DNA of 64,000 nt from a virus (IMGVR_UViG_3300010316_000005:64001-128000); one strand, 5' to 3'. Shown: positions 14,469 to 39,240, numbered from the stretch's first letter. The notes: generated by a model from the sequence alone, not told the origin. Numbers and translations: made by a program.

Positions 14469-15779
14469 ATGTCAATCAAAGGCACTTCAAGCAAAACTAA
14501 AAAGAACTGGCAGGAAGATCCAAATCTTACGCCAGAAGAACTCAAGGTTATGGGCGCCGCAGTCCTTGATCGTATTATTACTGCTCGTATCGGCTTGCTC
14601 CTAAAGCACCCGTTCTTTGGTAACCTTGCTACTCGGTTGAAGATCCAGGCGTGTGACGGTTGGTGCCCGACTGCGGCAACAGATGGCCGCAGCTTGTATT
14701 ACAACACTCAGTTCTTCAATGCAATGTCAAACAAAGAGATCGAGTTTGTTATTGCACACGAAATCCTTCACTGCGTGTACGATCACTTGTCGCGTCGTGA
14801 TAGCCGTGATCCTCAGCTTTATAACATTGCCGCTGACTACATTGTTAACAACATCCTTGTTGACGAGCGCATTGGTATTAAGCCAAAGATTGTTGATTGT
14901 TTCCAAGACTTTAAGTACCGCGGTTGGGCTTCTGAAGAAGTATACGATGCACTTCACGAAGAAGCCCAAAAGAATGGCGGCGACAAGAGCTTCCTTGATA
15001 AGCTTGGCGAAATGCTCGACGAACACTATGACTGGAGCAAAGACCCGAACGACGATGAACAGAAAGACGGCGAAGGCAACCCACAAGGCGGTGGCGGACG
15101 TCCTCAATATTCTGAGGAAGAACTGCGTCAGATTGCCGACGAAGTTAAAGAAGCTATGATTAACGCGGCTCAAAGTGCTGGTGCAGGTAATGTTCCTGCA
15201 GGCGTAGCGCGGATGATCAAAGAATTGACTGAGCCTAAGATGAACTGGCGTGAATTGCTGCGTCAGCAAATCCAAAGCATGATTCGCAGCGACTTTACTT
15301 TCCAGCGTCCAAACCGTAAGAGCCAGATGTCCGGCGCTATTCTTCCAGGACAGGACTTCCAAGACACTATTGACATTTGTGTTAGCTTGGACATGTCGGG
15401 TTCGATTGGTAACGAACAAGCTCAAGATTTCCTTTCAGAGATCAAAGGCATTATGGACGAGTACCAGGACTATAAGATCACTGTATGGTGTTTTGACACT
15501 AAGGTCTACAACGAGCAAGAGTTCACTTCAGACGGTGGCGACGACTTGCTAGACTATGAGATCATGGGCGGTGGCGGCACCGACTTTGACGCTAACTGGG
15601 AATACATGAAAGAACAGGACATTGTGCCTAAGAAGTTCATCATGTTTACAGATGGTTATGCTTGGAACAACTGGGGTGATCCAGACTACTGTGATACAAT
15701 CTTCCTTATTCACGGTAACCACGATCGTTCACTTGAAGGTCCGTTTGGCATGACAGTCCACTACGAGGACGCGCAATGA
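14469..15779 (+). CDS. HEXXH metallopeptidase-like domain plus VWA domain (DUF2201-type), partner of the AAA+ ATPase
   Basis: TAATDG, AHEILH, acidic/Gly linker, MIDAS DMSGS, GGGGTDF, FTDGY. Confidence 0.85.
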   Translation: MSIKGTSSKTKKNWQEDPNLTPEELKVMGAAVLDRIITARIGLLLKHPFFGNLATRLKIQACDGWCPTAATDGRSLYYNTQFFNAMSNKEIEFVIAHEILHCVYDHLSRRDSRDPQLYNIAADYIVNNILVDERIGIKPKIVDCFQDFKYRGWASEEVYDALHEEAQKNGGDKSFLDKLGEMLDEHYDWSKDPNDDEQKDGEGNPQGGGGRPQYSEEELRQIADEVKEAMINAAQSAGAGNVPAGVARMIKELTEPKMNWRELLRQQIQSMIRSDFTFQRPNRKSQMSGAILPGQDFQDTIDICVSLDMSGSIGNEQAQDFLSEIKGIMDEYQDYKITVWCFDTKVYNEQEFTSDGGDDLLDYEIMGGGGTDFDANWEYMKEQDIVPKKFIMFTDGYAWNNWGDPDYCDTIFLIHGNHDRSLEGPFGMTVHYEDAQ

Positions 15780-31820: not shown

Positions 31821-32438
31821 TTATTGTTGTCTAGTATTTCCGTAGTGAATTACTTCGCATTTATCGTTGACGTAGTTTCTCCAAGGATCGATCACTACAC
31901 TGCCGTCGGGGATATTACAGTACAATGTATCAACATCACTTTGTCCAGTATACTTGTAGGTTGTGCTAGCACTATGAGCAAGCAAGAAGATTGCTGGCTT
32001 ATAAGGGCGATAATCGTCGCCCGTTAATGGATCTACGTAAATTGGCCTGTAACCAAGCTTTTCTACATAACTACCAATCAACAAACTATAACTCCCATCT
32101 AGATATTCAACACCTGGTTTGTACGCTTTGCCATGAATAACAATATCGCTCATGCGAGGATTTTGCTGTGCTGCAAAGACCAAACGGTCAGCAATGTTTT
32201 TTGCCTGAATCTCTCTTGCGTTCATTATAGCATCAAATAAATCGTAGCCTAGATCTAATTCACTTGCCATGTATCTTAATGCAATATTATCACGCGGATG
32301 ACAATTGTGAACAACTACTCCGGTATTACTTTGTAGAAAGAATTGATCATCTTTTACTAGATGGCTTGGTTCAACTTCTACATTATAAACAGGACCGTTG
32401 TAGTCGAAAGTTTCTATTTTTTTAATTTTTGTTTTCAT
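31821..32438 (-). CDS. ugd: UDP-glucose dehydrogenase C-terminal fragment preceded by split-intein C-part
   Basis: Residues 1-45 are IntC (VYNVEV...VVHN), followed by CHPRDNIAL (catalytic Cys motif), GKAYKP and VIDPWR. Confidence 0.9.
   Translation of the reverse strand: MKTKIKKIETFDYNGPVYNVEVEPSHLVKDDQFFLQSNTGVVVHNCHPRDNIALRYMASELDLGYDLFDAIMNAREIQAKNIADRLVFAAQQNPRMSDIVIHGKAYKPGVEYLDGSYSLLIGSYVEKLGYRPIYVDPLTGDDYRPYKPAIFLLAHSASTTYKYTGQSDVDTLYCNIPDGSVVIDPWRNYVNDKCEVIHYGNTRQQ
32304..32438 (-). mobile_element. Split intein C-part (IntC, 45 aa)
   Basis: MKTKIKKIE...YNGPVYNVEV...GVVVHN|C; blocks F and G present. Confidence 0.92.
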
Positions 32439-33244
32439 AATTTAATTCCTAGATTTTTTAAATCACTTTCTAACATTATTTTTAATTTTAAGTCTGGATG
32501 TTGTTCGTTAAGTAACTCAAATTTTCTTTTTTGTATTCTATACCAATGACTTGCTTTTGGATCAACGTATGACCCCCATGCGTACACATAGAAATCGGGA
32601 AAATAATGATGAGTTAGCCCGTCGTCACCTATATAAGGAATTTTACCTTTATGACATTCAAAGGATAAATTGTTATCGTCTAAATATTCTATAAACTTTA
32701 ATTCGTATCTTCCTTGTACTTTATATGTAGCACCGTTACTATGTTTATATTCGTGCCAGTGCGCTTGTCCAGAGGTATTAGCATTATCATAACATCCTCG
32801 CTCCCATGCATCAAGTGATCCTCGTTTAAACTTAGCACGAAATTCCGGGTCTTCCATAAGCTTAGATCTTGTAGCAGAAACCTTAGCTCTTATTTCCAGA
32901 CGTTTCATTCCATTCTTGTCTCCGGCATTTACACCTTTTAGTTTTTTAGATATCTTATCTTTTATTTCAGTGCCGCGAGAAGTGTATGCATTTCTTACCC
33001 CTTGCGATACTTTCTCTCTAATTTCCGGTCTTGCTGCTAATATAGGACGCCAACATTTGTTACAATAATCTTTATCAAAATATTCATTTTTTTTCATTTT
33101 ACAATAATGACCTTTTAATCTGTTGTGCAAGTTCCCGCAAGAATCACATAACAGTTCAATATATTGAAGATTAACTTCTCGATATCCTGTTTTATTTTGC
33201 TTAGATTTTTCTTTTTTTCTTATAATGTATTCATTTACAATCAT
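32435..33244 (-). mobile_element. Free-standing PD-(D/E)XK-type putative homing endonuclease between the split-intein halves
   Basis: CDSC and CNKC Zn ligands; basic NUMOD-like middle; C-terminal QGRYELKF...IPY...YFPDFYV...YVDPK; AT-rich; ATGA overlap with IntC. Confidence 0.8.
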
Positions 33245-33249
33245 AATAT

Positions 33250-33257
33250 TATTTATC
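33250..33257 (-). promoter_or_regulatory. Late-promoter-like GATAAATA for the endonuclease and ugd C-half
   Basis: Motif ends 5 nt before ATG 33244. Confidence 0.55.
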
Positions 33258-33288
33258 TAAGCAGAATAAAACGAGCATGACAAGCGGT

Positions 33289-35421
33289 TCAGTCATCCAA
33301 TACATACAATTTGTCAGTTTTTAATACATTGTCTGCTCTTACTACAATTCTCAAATTATTGCGCCAAACTGGAATTAAGTGGTCAGCAGTTGTTATTAAC
33401 TCTGCGTCATCTATTATAAACTTATACATTTTTCCTGTATAATGCCTAGACGTTACTTGATCTATTTTTTTATAATCAATTTTAGAACAAGCATAGTTGG
33501 CTGATTTAATAATTCGAGTTTGATCAGTATCATTTATATAACAATCATACAACTCGGCAATACAAATTTCTTTATCGTCTACATTCACAAGAAAATCACC
33601 TAACACACAGCCGCCTCCGTCGCCCATGCCTGCCTTCATGTACTGTGGGCCCATAATTCGCATCGTAGACTGCGCTAGAGCGTCTGTAACAACGTCTACG
33701 TTAATGTTGCCCTGTTGCTCTGCTACGTCCTGCACCATGTTTACAAGACCGATTTTGGCACTGATGAATGTGTTTCCTTGCCACGTACATTTGCCGTTTC
33801 TCCGTGTAAGAAAAATATGATTCTTTGGAAGCATAGCACAGTATACTTTTCCGGTATAATCAACTGAATTAAATTTGAGGCCGACACTAGAAGAACTTTG
33901 ATATAATGATGTTTTATTAACTAACTCGTATATTAAATGACAATCTTTATTTGATAATTCAGTCCTTGTAGTTCTATATGACGGGGATCTGCCAACTTTA
34001 ATAATTAGTTCACCGAGATCTGCTGCCATTTGATCTGAACTAGAAGCATAATATTTATAACGTTGGTCGTCTGGTGATTTTGTACCATTAAAATGTGTAG
34101 TATGTAGAGCAGCGCCATCAGCAAGGTTATATGTATCTAGAAATAAACGAATCATGTCTTTTCCTAAATCTTTAATAATGCCAGGAATAAATTTATCAAA
34201 CGATTTTCCAAATTGGCTCAAGTATGTTGACAATTCGGGCCATAACACTGATATGCCTGTTCTTCCTGTTAATAGTCGGTATCTATCTTTTTCAGGATGA
34301 TTATTATATATATTAGAGAACACTTCATTAATCATTTCGTATTTGTCGGGATTCACATCCGAGCATTGCGAAATAATAATTCTTCCTGATTGATTACAAA
34401 TACATCCTTCTGATAAAAACCAAGCCATAAATTGTACATAATCTTCAGTTGCAAATGTCATTTCATTTACTGTAACCGTCTTTGGTGAATTGTTGTGCCA
34501 TTCAGTTGATCGTTGAAACACAAATCCTTTGCGCTTGATCACATCATGCGCTGGTTCTAACTTCCAATTATATCCATAATTTTTTCCAGGCAATTTGTTT
34601 TTTGTTGACATGCTACCAACAAACATATTATGCCCAGAAGTAACTAATACATCATCTTTGCTACTGTGAAAATGTATCATACTTCCATTGTAATCTCTTG
34701 AAACCCATTTATCAGGTGTTAACCATTCAGGGAGCATAGTAGCAGGATCCAATGACAATACTTGATCGGTATCGATTGCGTCTTTAAATAATTTCCACCC
34801 AGTTGAGGTTAACACCTCGGTATCATCTGAGTAGCAATTATAAAAAACCTTGATACATTCGCACTCGTCCCATGTTCCTACTACATAGCGCGGTTCATTT
34901 TCCATAATAGTTTTGTAAAAATCCACAAGCTGTTTTGCGTCGCCGGTTTCTGATCCGTCATTAGTTCCAATCATTATCATTTCTGGATTGACCATGTCCC
35001 AAGCCACACTTCCCATTGCAATTAGGTACGGATTATACACGAAACGGGTATTAGTTACTAGTGGTTCTAGTTCTCGTCTAACTGTGCCCGGCAGCACTGT
35101 TGAAATAAGGACCAGCAACTGATTTTCATTCATATGCTCGTTGGCTTGCGTCAGCACTTGCTTCACAATATCGTAGTCAAAGTCTTTTGGCGGTAAGTGA
35201 GCAGTAGGCTCTCTTCCGTCATATGACGGATCATGCGGCGTTGGTACTGCAACAAATACAATGTCTCTGCCTGCTATTGCACCTTTAACTGTTGGAAACA
35301 TAGTAACCAACTGGCTCTTGCGACGTTCTGTATCATATCCCGATACTTCATGTCCTTTTTGCGCCATTACTTCGGCACAAGGCATTCCAAGTTTTCCGAC
35401 GCCTATAAATCCTATTCTCAT
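33289..35421 (-). CDS. ugd: UDP-glucose dehydrogenase N-terminal fragment with cis intein and split-intein N-part
   Basis: GVGKLG Rossmann motif, FVAVPTP, ISTVLPGT, YNP; KVFYN|intein|TFISAKI; GMGDGGG|IntN. Confidence 0.92.
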   Translation of the reverse strand: MRIGFIGVGKLGMPCAEVMAQKGHEVSGYDTERRKSQLVTMFPTVKGAIAGRDIVFVAVPTPHDPSYDGREPTAHLPPKDFDYDIVKQVLTQANEHMNENQLLVLISTVLPGTVRRELEPLVTNTRFVYNPYLIAMGSVAWDMVNPEMIMIGTNDGSETGDAKQLVDFYKTIMENEPRYVVGTWDECECIKVFYNCYSDDTEVLTSTGWKLFKDAIDTDQVLSLDPATMLPEWLTPDKWVSRDYNGSMIHFHSSKDDVLVTSGHNMFVGSMSTKNKLPGKNYGYNWKLEPAHDVIKRKGFVFQRSTEWHNNSPKTVTVNEMTFATEDYVQFMAWFLSEGCICNQSGRIIISQCSDVNPDKYEMINEVFSNIYNNHPEKDRYRLLTGRTGISVLWPELSTYLSQFGKSFDKFIPGIIKDLGKDMIRLFLDTYNLADGAALHTTHFNGTKSPDDQRYKYYASSSDQMAADLGELIIKVGRSPSYRTTRTELSNKDCHLIYELVNKTSLYQSSSSVGLKFNSVDYTGKVYCAMLPKNHIFLTRRNGKCTWQGNTFISAKIGLVNMVQDVAEQQGNINVDVVTDALAQSTMRIMGPQYMKAGMGDGGGCVLGDFLVNVDDKEICIAELYDCYINDTDQTRIIKSANYACSKIDYKKIDQVTSRHYTGKMYKFIIDDAELITTADHLIPVWRNNLRIVVRADNVLKTDKLYVLDD
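33292..33609 (-). mobile_element. Split intein N-part (IntN, 106 aa)
   Basis: CVLGDFLV (block A), LITTADHLIPV (block B, TxxH), ends RADNVLKTDKLYVLDD*. Confidence 0.9.
33772..34836 (-). mobile_element. Cis intein with LAGLIDADG endonuclease (355 aa)
   Basis: CYSDDTEVLTSTGWK, VTSGHNM, FMAWFLSEG, FLDTYNLADG, SSSDQMAADL, VYCAML...RRNGKCTWQGN|T. Confidence 0.93.
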
Positions 35422-35440
35422 AAAGAATCTCCTTCTATCA

Positions 35441-35476
35441 TACTTATCTATGTAGTTAATGCAAGTTTAATAAATA
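35441..35476. promoter_or_regulatory. Divergent late-promoter-like motifs
   Basis: GATAAGTA on the minus strand (35441-48) and ATAAATA on the plus strand (35470-76) in the divergent gap. Confidence 0.45.
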
Positions 35477-35498
35477 TGACTACGAAGGAATTTTATCA

Positions 35499-36086
35499 AT
35501 GTTTCACAAAATAAAAGAATTTGAAGAGCAGATTGCAGAATTTACCGGAGCGACTTACGCAGTAACTACAGACTGTTGCACTCACGCTATTGAATTGTGC
35601 TTGATACTTGACAAGATCAAGCAGTGCCATTTTAGTGCATACACATATCTGAGCGTAATACAAACTATGCACAAACTAGGAATTGAGTACACACTGATTG
35701 AAGAACCGTGGAAAGGTGAATATCAGTATTACCAAACACGTATTTGGGATAGCGCAAGGCGTTTAGAGCCGAATATGTATAGACATGGACAATTACAGTG
35801 TTTAAGCTTTGGTTTTGGAAAACCGGTTGACATTGGTAGAGGTGGTGCTATACTTTGTGATAACTATGATGATTATAAATTGCTGTCAATGATGAAATAC
35901 GATGGCAGAGATTTAGATATCAGTCCTTGGATTGATCAAACTTATTTTGTCCAAGGTTATCACTATAAACTAAATCCCGAGGAATGTATACGAGGTATGG
36001 AAGCACTAAAACAATACAAGCTAACCGGAGAGTATACTCCTAAAGAAGTATCATACCCAGACTGCCGGAGTGTAAAGATACAATGA
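35499..36086 (+). CDS. DegT/DnrJ/EryC1/StrS-family aminotransferase-like protein (short)
   Basis: FEEQIAEFTG, DCCTHAIEL, WDSA, CLSFGFGKP...GRGGAIL, GYHYKL. Confidence 0.75.
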   Translation: MFHKIKEFEEQIAEFTGATYAVTTDCCTHAIELCLILDKIKQCHFSAYTYLSVIQTMHKLGIEYTLIEEPWKGEYQYYQTRIWDSARRLEPNMYRHGQLQCLSFGFGKPVDIGRGGAILCDNYDDYKLLSMMKYDGRDLDISPWIDQTYFVQGYHYKLNPEECIRGMEALKQYKLTGEYTPKEVSYPDCRSVKIQ

Positions 36087-36742
36087 AGATACTTTGCTTA
36101 GGAGATAGTTGGACCAAAGGTTACGGAGTTATGCGTGACTGGACAAGATATTTACCTTTTGACGTTAAGAATGGCGCAGGAGACGGTGCAGGCTATGTAG
36201 AAATACTTAAACAATTCAAAAGATCTTATAACGATAGCTACGACTTAGTGATTGTAGGCTGGAGTGGTGCAACTCGTGACGACTATCTTGAATTTAGTAT
36301 AACTACTGACGAATCTATTGAACACTTTAAAGATAAAAGCTTAGACGATATACTCAATCGGTGGCACGAACACATTGATGAAATTGTGAATACTGCTAAA
36401 TGTCCAGTTATTCACTTTTCTGTATTTGGCGACGTGCCCGGAAAGCATTATGATAACTTTCTTGAGACTAGCTTTTTAGAATATCTAGCAAATCAAGACG
36501 GCATATATTTTAAGTACAACATTCCCTTATTTGAATTTGATTGGCTTAACGAAAACAATTTCAAAGTTACTGGCCCGTTTGGTAAAAAATATTTTCCAAA
36601 GAATTGGAAACGTGCTTGTGTAGAACGAGAAGCTGTGCGAGACCAAGGGTCATTCTTATACTGCGGACATCCTAATCAGCGCGGACACAAGCTATGGGCA
36701 AAATTTATGGAGATGGAAATTGACTGTTTATTCGCAAAATGA
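36083..36742 (+). CDS. SGNH/GDSL hydrolase-like protein
   Basis: LGDSWTKG at the N-terminus and GHPNQRGHKLWA at the C-terminus. Confidence 0.7.
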   Translation: MKILCLGDSWTKGYGVMRDWTRYLPFDVKNGAGDGAGYVEILKQFKRSYNDSYDLVIVGWSGATRDDYLEFSITTDESIEHFKDKSLDDILNRWHEHIDEIVNTAKCPVIHFSVFGDVPGKHYDNFLETSFLEYLANQDGIYFKYNIPLFEFDWLNENNFKVTGPFGKKYFPKNWKRACVEREAVRDQGSFLYCGHPNQRGHKLWAKFMEMEIDCLFAK

Positions 36743-37637
36743 GTGGAGCCAACTAAAACGAATCGTAGTAGGTTCCGCAGTAAACGCACACTGGCCTGCC
36801 GAGTGTCCTGTGTACCGAGCGCAAGAAAAAACCACCAAGTGGACAGAGACTCCTGTACCCAGTGGCCCAGTTAATCCGTTTGTTATAGATCAGGCCAACG
36901 AAGACTTAAACAACTTTTGTAACAAACTACTCGACGCAGGTGTTACTGTATTGCGACCTACAATAATGGACTTTGCTAGCTTCGATGGTATGTACAATTA
37001 TTGCCCAAGAGATCGTGTACTCATTGTAGGCGATAAGATTATCAATGCTCCGATGTTGTATCCGACTCGTACTAGAGAAATCGAAGCACTTGAACATATG
37101 TTTGATACCGATATAATAACGTGCGACGATGAAGACGCTACGTTTGACGCAGCTAACGTATGTCGCCTAGGAAATGATTTACTGTACCTAGTTAGTGAGA
37201 GTGGCAACCTGGCAGGTGCACGGTGGTTACAGCGCGTCTTAGGCACCGACTACCGCGTACACATCCTCGACAACATCTATGCAGGAGTACACATCGACAG
37301 TACTATCACACCTGTACAAGAGGGACTAGTTGTGCTCAACGGTGACAGAATAAACGACGGCAATCTGCCTGAGGTATTTAAAACGTGGGATAAGATTTAT
37401 GTCACCGGCGATGACATTGCTGCACAGTCATTTATTGAATATCCTTACGCAAGTAAATACATTGCGCTAAACTTTTTAACTGTTAATCCAAATCTTGTAA
37501 TGTGCGATCCGTATCAAGAATTTTTAATACACGAACTATCAAAGCGCAACGTAGAAGCAGTAGGTGTACCGCTAAGGCAAAGCAGAACATTAGGCGGCGG
37601 ACATCATTGCGTTACACTAGACTTGGAGAGAGAATAA
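36720..37637 (+). CDS. Amidinotransferase (glycine/inosamine-phosphate amidinotransferase family)
   Basis: NEWSQLKRIVVG, YCPRD, FDAAN, HIDST, LGGGHHCVTLD. Confidence 0.88.
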   Translation: MTVYSQNEWSQLKRIVVGSAVNAHWPAECPVYRAQEKTTKWTETPVPSGPVNPFVIDQANEDLNNFCNKLLDAGVTVLRPTIMDFASFDGMYNYCPRDRVLIVGDKIINAPMLYPTRTREIEALEHMFDTDIITCDDEDATFDAANVCRLGNDLLYLVSESGNLAGARWLQRVLGTDYRVHILDNIYAGVHIDSTITPVQEGLVVLNGDRINDGNLPEVFKTWDKIYVTGDDIAAQSFIEYPYASKYIALNFLTVNPNLVMCDPYQEFLIHELSKRNVEAVGVPLRQSRTLGGGHHCVTLDLERE

Positions 37638-38134
37638 TGTGGTCAATAGGACAAATTCCAGAAGGAATTATTACAGACGAGTTTAAAGAACTTGATTACA
37701 TCAACGAACCATTTAATGATCCTAAGATAGCCGAAGAATGGGACAAAACATATGGTCCGATATATAGCACAGGCGAGATGGTTGACTACCGACATTACCA
37801 GCCTGCTTGGTATAACAATATTGTTGATTACCTTAAGTTGGGAATAGCAGGAGCCAGTTTTTACAAAATGGGACCTGGTAAGATACTTCCTTATCACAGT
37901 GATGCATATGTGCGCTACATTGAGTACCACAAGATTAAAGACACTCGGTGCATTCATCGAGCAGTTGTATTTTTAGAAGATTGGCAACCCGGGCATATTT
38001 TTGAAGTAGATGGAGTTCCGCTGTATAATTACAAAGCAGGCACATATGTTCTATGGCAGTACAACACTCCGCATATGGCTGCTAATCTAGGGCCGACCAA
38101 TAGATACACTTTACAAATTACAGGTATAAAATGA
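37637..38134 (+). CDS. 2OG-Fe(II) oxygenase
   Basis: LPYHSD...PHMAAN...RYTLQITG; ATG 37637 overlaps the preceding TAA. Confidence 0.75.
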   Translation: MWSIGQIPEGIITDEFKELDYINEPFNDPKIAEEWDKTYGPIYSTGEMVDYRHYQPAWYNNIVDYLKLGIAGASFYKMGPGKILPYHSDAYVRYIEYHKIKDTRCIHRAVVFLEDWQPGHIFEVDGVPLYNYKAGTYVLWQYNTPHMAANLGPTNRYTLQITGIK

Positions 38135-39240
38135 TATTTCCAAATTTAGAAATTATAGATAAAGACGATGCCGTTTACTTTCATAACGATGGAGATGAGG
38201 GAGTTCGGCGTTATTTTTATATACGTAATATCTATCAGCCAGACGAAACTACTGCGTATCTTTTTCTTTCTCAAGAATTTACAAATATTACTAACGCATC
38301 AAACTATATTATCAAAAAGGGCTACACTAAGCTGTTTATCTTTATTGACGATATATTTAGAGATCACTTGATGTTCACCAACGCGCAAGCCGAAATTAAA
38401 GCAGTTAAGGAAATCTTAGAAAAAACTAATATCAAAGACTACCGGATATTCCATTGCGAAATGTTAAATAAAGGCAATTACGAAAATCCATTTGACGTCG
38501 ACATTGAATATTACGACATGTTCCTTACGCACTGGATCAAAAAAAATCCTTACGATCACGAACTAAATATTAACTTCGAAAACAAGATTAGCTTTTACAA
38601 TAATAGAGATGACTATCATCGGCAGTATATGGCAGCAATGCTAATCAACAACAATGACATCGATCTCACATTGAATCAAAAACATCGTTACACATATATA
38701 GCCAACCAATCCAAATTTCCTATCAATCAATTTAGTAAAGGTTTCCAGCGTAGATTAAAGTCAAACTTAATACAGCTGGATAAAGTACATCGCAACTATG
38801 TCGACGGCAATAATTCTGAACTTAAGATGATAGACAACTACAAAGAACAACACGACGACAAAGTTGTTCGTTGGATAGAAAATAGCTTTGTTAATCTCGT
38901 AGGCGAAACAACCTATTATCTTCCCTATCCATATATCAGTGAAAAGTCACTAAAGCCCATGCTCGCACATCGTCCATTTATTATGCTTGGGCCACATAAG
39001 AGTTTAGAAGTATTACGCGAGCTAGGATTCAAAACGTTTGATAAGTGGGTTGACGAGGACTACGACAAGGAGCCGGATCCCCATAAGCGACTTGAAATGG
39101 TTTACAAACTTACACAGGATGTACTACGCAAGGACCCCGACGAGTTAAAAGAAATGTTGCTCGCTATGGGAGGGGTACTGCGGCATAATAAAAAAGTCGT
39201 AGACAGATTACCGCACGATATTTGGGAAAGCCTTTTGTAG
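38131..39240 (+). CDS. Glycosyltransferase-like protein (GT-B, GT10-like C-terminus)
   Basis: VNLVGETT...YISEKSLKP...PFIMLG...GFKTF...DEDYD. Confidence 0.55.
   Translation: MIFPNLEIIDKDDAVYFHNDGDEGVRRYFYIRNIYQPDETTAYLFLSQEFTNITNASNYIIKKGYTKLFIFIDDIFRDHLMFTNAQAEIKAVKEILEKTNIKDYRIFHCEMLNKGNYENPFDVDIEYYDMFLTHWIKKNPYDHELNINFENKISFYNNRDDYHRQYMAAMLINNNDIDLTLNQKHRYTYIANQSKFPINQFSKGFQRRLKSNLIQLDKVHRNYVDGNNSELKMIDNYKEQHDDKVVRWIENSFVNLVGETTYYLPYPYISEKSLKPMLAHRPFIMLGPHKSLEVLRELGFKTFDKWVDEDYDKEPDPHKRLEMVYKLTQDVLRKDPDELKEMLLAMGGVLRHNKKVVDRLPHDIWESLL

Follow-up and report, generated by a model that had tools for sequence, protein, structure and literature searches.

Fractured genes have been described in phage-like DNA from the Global Ocean Sampling (GOS) data by Dassa, London, Stoddard, Schueler-Furman and Pietrokovski (Dassa et al. 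2009; PMC2677866). The loci reported in that work, gp41-1 to -8, IMPDH-1, NrdJ-1, NrdA, DnaE, ligase and terminase, do not include a sugar enzyme, and all eight host proteins are enzymes of DNA synthesis or repair (PMC2677866). The DNA analyzed here, a stretch of 64,000 nucleotides from a viral metagenomic contig (IMGVR_UViG_3300010316_000005:64001-128000, hereafter the window), carries on its minus strand, between positions 31821 and 35421, a gene for a putative UDP-glucose dehydrogenase (ugd, protein Ugd) that is very probably a further case: a phage gene interrupted twice by mobile protein-splicing elements and fractured at the second, with the two halves joined by trans-splicing. The fractured hosts that had been listed in a preliminary description of this stretch agree with those of Dassa et al. 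(2009).

The locus shares several details with the published fractured genes. Here as there, the setting is phage DNA, the break falls into the canonical loop for endonuclease insertion, the 3′ end of the endonuclease gene overlaps the start of the sequence for the C-terminal intein half (IntC), a putative late promoter element resembling TATAAATA stands ahead of the endonuclease gene, and derivatives without the endonuclease exist (gp41-7 in the published set, the related metagenomic loci L010 and L039 in ours). On the other hand, the host protein is a nucleotide-sugar dehydrogenase, the endonuclease is a canonical PD-(D/E)XK enzyme similar to T7 endonuclease I (T7 endo I) and TnsA instead of a GIY-YIG or Vsr-like one, the overlap amounts to 4 nt as compared to 6-69 bp, and the clear 5′ hairpin of the published genes is not seen in the window.

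The second point of reference is the cis intein allele 'udp' or UDP-GD, represented by Mja UDP-GD in InBase and by the udp inteins of halobacteria (Soucy et al. 2014; PMC4071816). The split intein of the window occupies the same insertion point, directly before the catalytic cysteine of the motif GGxC[FH]P[KR]D. Cis inteins at the 'udp' site occur in archaeal, bacterial and phage-type enzymes, and homology of the splicing domain extends over the entire N-terminal half of the window intein (IntN), as seen with P0273 (haloarchaeal-type, 2e-07) and P0304 (LAGLIDADG-type, 2e-06). However, the inteins of this allele are contiguous and either contain a nested LAGLIDADG endonuclease or are mini-inteins, whereas the window intein is distributed over two genes and accompanied by an endonuclease of another superfamily.

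Anatomy, homology, conservation and distribution of the locus can be read directly from the sequences compared here. Three open reading frames (ORFs), each in a different frame, make up the region. IntN closes the upstream ORF (N ORF), IntC opens the downstream ORF (C ORF) and the endonuclease ORF lies between them in a frame of its own, i.e., in the layout of a fractured gene (Table 1). Re-reading of the ORFs reproduced exactly the boundaries and lengths given in the preliminary description, including the sum of the exteins, 195+54+160 = 409 aa, for the mature enzyme. That both insertions are precise follows from an alignment with uninterrupted Ugd homologues from Synechococcus phage Bellamy (412 aa), Pelagibacter phage HTVC008M (381 aa) and Marine virus AG-345-E15 (408 aa), in which FYN/TFISAK and GDGG[AG]/CHPRD are contiguous (slashes mark the insertion points in the window). 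The same alignment bears out the earlier statement that the split intein sits exactly before the catalytic cysteine. In tblastn searches with the C ORF against deposited phages, the alignments with the Ugd proteins of Bellamy, HTVC008M and AG-345-E15 begin at residue 45/46; all six matches start downstream of IntC, such that no IntC half was found in deposited phage genomes. Among 50,697 phage records, megablast found no match to the locus.

The exteins themselves are recognizable as parts of one enzyme. The N ORF matches the Pfam families UDPG_MGDP_dh_N (5e-18) and, at residues 550-609, UDPG_MGDP_dh (7e-08), and both PF03721 and PF00984 exceed their cut-offs in the Ugd exteins, while the C-terminal Ugd domain has no Pfam match. 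The profile phrog_9148 (UDP-glucose dehydrogenase) is covered from 1 to 212 by the N ORF (1e-68) and from 261 to 357 by the C ORF (5e-22). The sequence CHPRD aligns with the active-site motif CFPKD of the solved UDP-glucose dehydrogenase (UGDH) structure 4a7p, and the catalytic motif GGxCxP[KR]D is present only after the exteins have been joined. In the UGDH family, the cysteine of this motif is the catalytic nucleophile. UDP-glucose is the putative substrate, a designation taken from the annotation of relatives.

IntN begins with the cysteine expected of an intein (Cys605 of the N ORF, Cys1 of the intein) and contains the block B sequence TADH. The assignment of the two halves in the preliminary description held when they were scored with hidden Markov models: IntN reaches 30.9 bits with NCBIfam TIGR01445 (intein_Nterm, cut-off 24.5), and on the 155 positions of Pfam Intein_splicing (PF14890) the halves are complementary, with IntN covering 8-94 and IntC 121-155 (E 0.011). 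A profile built from 17 IntN relatives recovered the solved inteins KlbA (2jmz, 7e-13) and PI-PkoII (1e-08), also Pab PolII, and the inteins of the published fractured genes only at a distance (NrdJ-1 2e-06, gp41-1 0.06). A profile of 18 IntC relatives matched the C-terminal blocks of the same chains (KlbA 2jmz 139-163, PI-PkoII 2cw7 502-524). The top matches of the IntC profile in the PDB, polyubiquitin repeats, were dismissed as spurious, brought about by a short common ...EVEP... motif, and the informative matches are the weaker ones to KlbA and PI-PkoII. Cys1 and the block B threonine are invariant in the 17 IntN relatives, the block B histidine is so with one exception, and the terminal His-Asn is invariant in the 18 IntC relatives, where VVHN is followed by the +1 cysteine. 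The splicing residues including this cysteine are kept in relatives with identities as low as about 26-40%. A contiguous mini-intein of 142 aa in a related dehydrogenase (P0260) occupies the same site; IntN aligns to its residues 235-332 and IntC to 342-376. As the halves thus correspond to both of its ends, the break can be assigned to a loop of about nine residues, the usual place of nested endonucleases. Taken together, IntN and IntC probably form a single class-1 HINT splicing domain. In one alignment, MAFFT placed the IntC rows on the middle of IntN (...Y.G..Y...E), and this alignment was discarded. The misplacement reflects the internal pseudo-twofold repeat of the HINT fold, which can mislead automatic aligners when they are given separate intein halves.

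Among cultured phages, the closest split intein is the split DNA polymerase (PolB1) intein of Aeromonas phages Aes508/Aes123, and among solved structures it is NrdJ-1. Both align with the full IntN and share its class and split site; however, identity does not exceed 26-28%, the host proteins are different ones, and in the window both nucleophiles are cysteines.

The first insert in Ugd is a different element. Its length had been accounted for in the arithmetic of the preliminary description, which left the element itself undiscussed. This cis intein (cis intein 1) begins with CYSDD, ends with WQGN, is followed by threonine as the +1 residue and, when compared with uninterrupted homologues, is placed exactly between FYN and TFISAK. 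Full-length homologues of the element number 178, and many of them match Pfam LAGLIDADG_3 and Intein_splicing, while Pfam and PDB sequence searches with the window copy alone gave no match. The homologues reside, among others, in Ugd, portal, minor capsid, ribonucleotide reductase (RNR), helicase, PurD, glycosyltransferase and methyltransferase proteins of uncultured phages. Within Ugd, cis intein 1 is found alone (e.g., P0338-P0340 and P0200), in the combination seen in the window, i.e., with the split intein (P0341, P0342, P0343 and P0346), and also combined with a cis intein at the second site. P0284, a phage-type enzyme of 1166 aa, has cis inteins at both sites. A protein that would mature through both cis- and trans-splicing has a parallel in DnaE of Trichodesmium erythraeum, which reportedly harbors cis inteins together with a split intein. 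There, however, the host protein is a DNA polymerase, and the halves lie far apart in the genome without an intervening endonuclease gene.

The ORF between the intein halves had been predicted to encode a PD-(D/E)XK endonuclease, and its length of 269 aa, its family match, its motif and its fold all bear this out. The full protein matches Pfam Phage_endo_I with 29.6 bits (cut-off 29.1) and the domain alone with 31.2 bits; this is the only Pfam match, even at E values up to 10. In 27 homologues, E181, P216-D217 and K230 never vary, and D228 hardly does. Four cysteines are kept in the N-terminal part, a region with a Cys4 zinc-finger-like beta hairpin and helical repeats. The AlphaFold2 (AF2) model (pLDDT 89) places the PD-(D/E)XK domain at residues of about 155-268. 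The best structural match of this domain is TnsA (Z 9.1, rmsd 2.6 Å, 104 aligned residues), followed by Bax1, Vsr (Z 6.2), VRR-NUC and I-Bth0305I (Z 5.7); Foldseek put T7 endonuclease I (probability 0.94-0.96) and TnsA at the top, with weak E values of about 0.02-0.04. The middle gene is thus a canonical PD-(D/E)XK nuclease with the signature E...PD...DxK. Membership in the Vsr-like or EDxHD group was rejected, because the invariant lysine of DxK is present and the Vsr type does not have it, and the GIY-YIG type known from published fractured genes does not apply either. The EDxHD (Vsr-like) homing endonucleases, exemplified by I-Bth0305I, combine a restriction-endonuclease-like fold with a separate N-terminal DNA-binding region (PMC3239194). 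The window enzyme resembles them and I-Ssp6803I in both respects and differs from I-Bth0305I and the EDxHD group in its E...PD...DxK signature, the invariant lysine and the match to Phage_endo_I. Among cultured phages, it is most closely related to the free-standing 'endonuclease I' genes found in T4-like coliphages, with identities of about 25-28%.

Table 1. Parts of the interrupted ugd locus in the window. Residue numbers refer to the N ORF.
Feature	Position	Strand	Remarks and evidence
N ORF	33289-35421	(-)	710 aa: Ugd 1-195, insert 196-550, Ugd 551-604, IntN 605-710, then stop
Ugd N-extein part 1 (residues 1-195), NAD-binding domain	34837..35421	(-)	Pfam, phrog_9148, colinear with homologues to ...FYN
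Cis intein 1 (residues 196-550, 355 aa), LAGLIDADG-type endonuclease domain	33772..34836	(-)	Precise insertion, 178 homologues
Ugd middle extein (residues 551-604), central domain, ends GMGDGGG	33610..33771	(-)	Pfam UDPG_MGDP_dh, alignment
IntN (residues 605-710, 106 aa), CVLGDF...LDD	33292..33609	(-)	Intein profiles, conservation; stop codon 33289-33291
Spacer, 44 nt, IntN stop to endonuclease ATG	33245..33288	(-)	Contains GATAAATA
Free-standing homing-type endonuclease gene, 269 aa	32435..33244	(-)	Pfam Phage_endo_I, motif, AF2 fold
Overlap of endonuclease stop and IntC ATG		(-)	ATGA, 4 nt
C ORF	31821-32438	(-)	205 aa: 45-aa IntC, then 160 Ugd residues
IntC, 45 aa, ends VVHN	32304..32438	(-)	Pfam Intein_splicing, profile against PDB, conservation
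Ugd C-extein, 160 aa and stop, starts at catalytic Cys of CHPRD	31821..32303	(-)	phrog_9148, tblastn

A scheme for the maturation of the enzyme can be proposed on this basis. Site 1 (FYN/T) would accommodate an ordinary cis-splicing intein with a nested LAGLIDADG endonuclease, and site 2, directly before the catalytic cysteine, a 'udp'-site intein broken in its endonuclease-insertion loop by the free-standing PD-(D/E)XK gene, as a consequence of which ugd would be expressed as two polypeptides. The N precursor would excise cis intein 1, and IntN (106 aa) and IntC (45 aa) would associate into one HINT domain. Class-1 chemistry would then begin with an N-S shift at Cys605 that forms a thioester, proceed by trans-thioesterification to the +1 cysteine of the C half and be completed by cyclization of Asn45 of IntC and an S-N shift that makes the peptide bond. 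The product would be the enzyme of 409 aa in which GDGGG-CHPRD is restored and the +1 cysteine is freed to act as the catalytic nucleophile. The endonuclease is predicted to cut ugd alleles that lack the intein or the endonuclease gene during co-infection and thereby to spread the cassette by homing. Its gene may bring along the late-type promoter motif, and the ATGA overlap may supply the start of the IntC half.

Several points weigh against this reading and have to be set beside the evidence. Splicing, Ugd activity, DNA cleavage and use of the promoter are steps that we infer. With PF14890, the intein halves score 23.2 and 16 bits, each under the gathering threshold of 35.8. TIGR03026 gives 105 bits for the fragmented protein compared to a cut-off of 189.8, which affects the assignment of the sugar substrate, and the motif of the clade is HPRD, not FPKD. 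Cis intein 1 ends with GN and lacks the penultimate histidine, as do its relatives. Ahead of the window endonuclease gene there is no convincing RNA hairpin or Shine-Dalgarno sequence, the hairpin being weak (-8 kcal/mol over 86 nt), and a scan for sigma-70 promoters and terminators remained at chance level. Finally, dS is saturated in every pair, so that dN/dS values are bounds only and the proportions of non-synonymous (pN) and synonymous (pS) changes were compared instead.

Among the alternatives, the one that survives best is that IntN and IntC serve as a dimerization module and that Ugd works as a two-chain enzyme assembled non-covalently and without splicing, a state reportedly demonstrated for the endonuclease-split NrdA of Aeromonas phage Aeh1. 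Phage enzymes made of fragments that work unspliced are on record (PMC3045599), and splicing in the split-intein family of the window is a prediction. We nevertheless consider a two-chain enzyme improbable: without splicing, the 45-aa IntC would directly precede the catalytic cysteine, the GDGGG loop would continue into the 106-aa IntN inside the active site, and residues needed for nothing but splicing (Cys1, TxxH and the terminal HN) are invariant or nearly so in very diverged relatives, a demand that dimerization alone would not impose.

Even less probable, to a degree that we regard it as very unlikely, is that the insertion of the endonuclease gene inactivated ugd and that the pieces are remnants of a dying gene. 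Ugd is an auxiliary protein, many relatives in this phage group do without the gene, and on one related contig the endonuclease gene is in decay. Yet none of the three ORFs is disrupted, dozens of diverged lineages have retained the layout, the intein halves remain intact where the endonuclease decays, and ugd is located inside a conserved sugar-tailoring cluster. In addition, non-synonymous change is far below synonymous change in the exteins, IntN and IntC: pN amounts to 0.19-0.20 for IntN, 0.09-0.16 for IntC and 0.10-0.15 for the endonuclease, compared to a pS of 0.68-0.79. IntN, IntC and the endonuclease are therefore under purifying selection, and the locus is most likely functional, as judged from its sequence and that of its relatives.

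A chimeric assembly that placed the endonuclease segment into ugd can practically be discounted, even though the source is an IMG/VR metagenomic contig with an estimated completeness of 49%, because identical copies of the C-half protein are present on 8 contigs and of the N ORF on 5, the parts follow the same order in independent assemblies (JGI, ENA, NCBI and Logan) with 41-98% identity, and the junctions are biologically exact (Cys1 on one side, HN before the +1 cysteine on the other). Misassembly had been named in the preliminary description as a possible objection; the locus is neither a product of chance nor of misassembly.

The fractured ugd is in fact common in marine viral metagenomes, where it has gone unannotated. 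A length-restricted search with the C ORF returned 1626 matches, and among the matches listed, 68 of 120 clusters have an IntC of 40-46 aa that ends with HN before CHPRD. The idea that all variants with an IntC of 40 aa are devoid of the endonuclease was dropped, since several of them appear to be paired with endonuclease clusters. The same three-part layout was seen on the fetched contigs L004-L007, L011 and L012. We surveyed the best 80 IMG/VR loci, of which 19, L039 included, have the fractured layout: 60 are uninterrupted, 17 are fractured with the endonuclease type of the window, one contig is truncated and shows IntC alone, and one (L039) is split without an endonuclease. In the latter, two stop codons and about 20 nt separate IntN from IntC (L039:3470-3500), and both halves are intact. 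They are likewise intact in L010, where the endonuclease gene has been reduced to its first ~23 and last ~27 codons (L010:4799-5000). The 232-kb contig L009 has the same split intein with a different middle ORF of 301 aa (L009:4055-4960) that contains a C-terminal cluster of cysteines and histidines. This ORF has no Pfam or PHROG match, and its N-terminal motif is GIY-YIG-like by eye only. The IntC half of L009 had been given a wrong start by the gene caller; its true ATG overlaps the end of the 301-aa ORF.

Related elements are not confined to this type of enzyme. A cassette of IntN, PD-(D/E)XK endonuclease and IntC is present in a distant, short nucleotide-sugar dehydrogenase (L016:1945-4090 and P0232), inserted at the homologous cysteine (GYGGK/C...HN/CFPKD), which suggests that the cassette spread across enzyme subfamilies. 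At the 'udp' site itself, cis inteins occur in P0273 (haloarchaeal-type), P0304 (LAGLIDADG-bearing) and P0329 (phage-type, LAGLIDADG-bearing).

The mobility of the element is also reflected in the comparison of its parts. Across 11 loci, the identities of exteins and inteins are uncorrelated (Spearman rho 0.06, with pairs that are not independent of one another). Loci L012 and L078 share 76% identity in the exteins, 94% in the intein and 98% in the endonuclease, while for L057 and L078 the corresponding values are 82%, 54% and 52%, and for the window and L004 they are 77%, 45% and 47%. Intein and endonuclease thus travel together. The G+C content is 0.29-0.36 over IntN and the endonuclease gene, 0.33-0.35 over cis intein 1 and 0.40-0.45 in the exteins. 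Such dips and the uncorrelated identities would be expected from homing between diverged ugd alleles.

The 44-nt spacer ahead of the endonuclease gene contains a motif, GATAAATA at 33250-33257, that is similar to a T4 late promoter. In the window as well as in L004, L007, L011 and L012, the endonuclease ATG is preceded at a distance of 7-25 nt by a sequence NATAAAT[A/G], with spacers that have otherwise diverged, and the ATGA overlap is kept in the same four contigs. Five of the 19 NATAAATA sites in the window lie within 40 nt upstream of gene starts, as compared to 0.3 expected; tail-fibre genes are among them. The divergent operon next to ugd (35422-35498 and 35499-39240 on the plus strand) has a NATAAATA motif at a distance of at most 40 nt from its first ATG, and the N half of ugd is without one. 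Separate promoters may therefore serve the two halves of Ugd.

As to novelty, we found no paper that pairs a split intein with a UDP-sugar dehydrogenase in a literature search that did not extend to subscription journals and InBase. The layout and the 'udp' insertion site are already known, and in principle the locus holds no surprise. The novelty seems to lie in the split state in a sugar dehydrogenase and at the 'udp' site, together with an endonuclease lineage not seen before in fractured genes. The suggestion in the preliminary description that this may be a new trans-splicing pair stands as far as the split form is concerned and has to be restricted in that the site had been catalogued as 'udp' and that the split form belongs to a large metagenome family.

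Beyond the individual gene, fractured genes, formerly a matter of enzymes for DNA replication, repair or packaging only, are extended to an auxiliary gene of sugar metabolism. Within one phage gene family, the 'udp' site is encountered at every proposed stage of the intein life cycle: empty, with a mini-intein, with a LAGLIDADG-bearing cis intein, split by an endonuclease gene, and with the endonuclease decayed or lost. With all stages in one family, a compact natural test bed is available for the gene-breaking model of Dassa et al. (2009). The many diverged natural pairs of IntN and IntC, which share about 41-94% identity with one another and about 27% with the nearest characterized split intein, are candidate tools for orthogonal protein ligation. 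The endonuclease likewise offers a new scaffold of the homing type, while the basic understanding of inteins is unchanged. Tentatively, and without going so far as to call it probable, we put forward the full combination: a large undescribed family of trans-splicing inteins that would be the first to reside in a sugar-nucleotide enzyme and whose splice cysteine coincides with the catalytic nucleophile, with a new homing lineage of T7 endo I/TnsA-like PD-(D/E)XK enzymes and an orthogonal Cys/Cys panel. If this is true, the persistence of the family after loss of the endonuclease means that the pair must splice efficiently, and dozens of diverged natural variants would provide a ready panel of mutually orthogonal Cys/Cys ligation tools. 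The C half would be placed behind the late-type promoter of the endonuclease gene, and splicing might time Ugd activity to late infection.

The IMG/VR contig from which the window was taken has a length of 175,736 bases. A T4-type Gp23 capsid protein is encoded by the same 175.7-kb record, a second ugd is not contained in it, and the host of the locus is a T4-like marine phage. Elsewhere in the window, an ORF of 436 aa (14469-15779 on the plus strand) matches phrog_1314 ('HNH endonuclease') over its full length with 2e-119 and may represent another mobile endonuclease.

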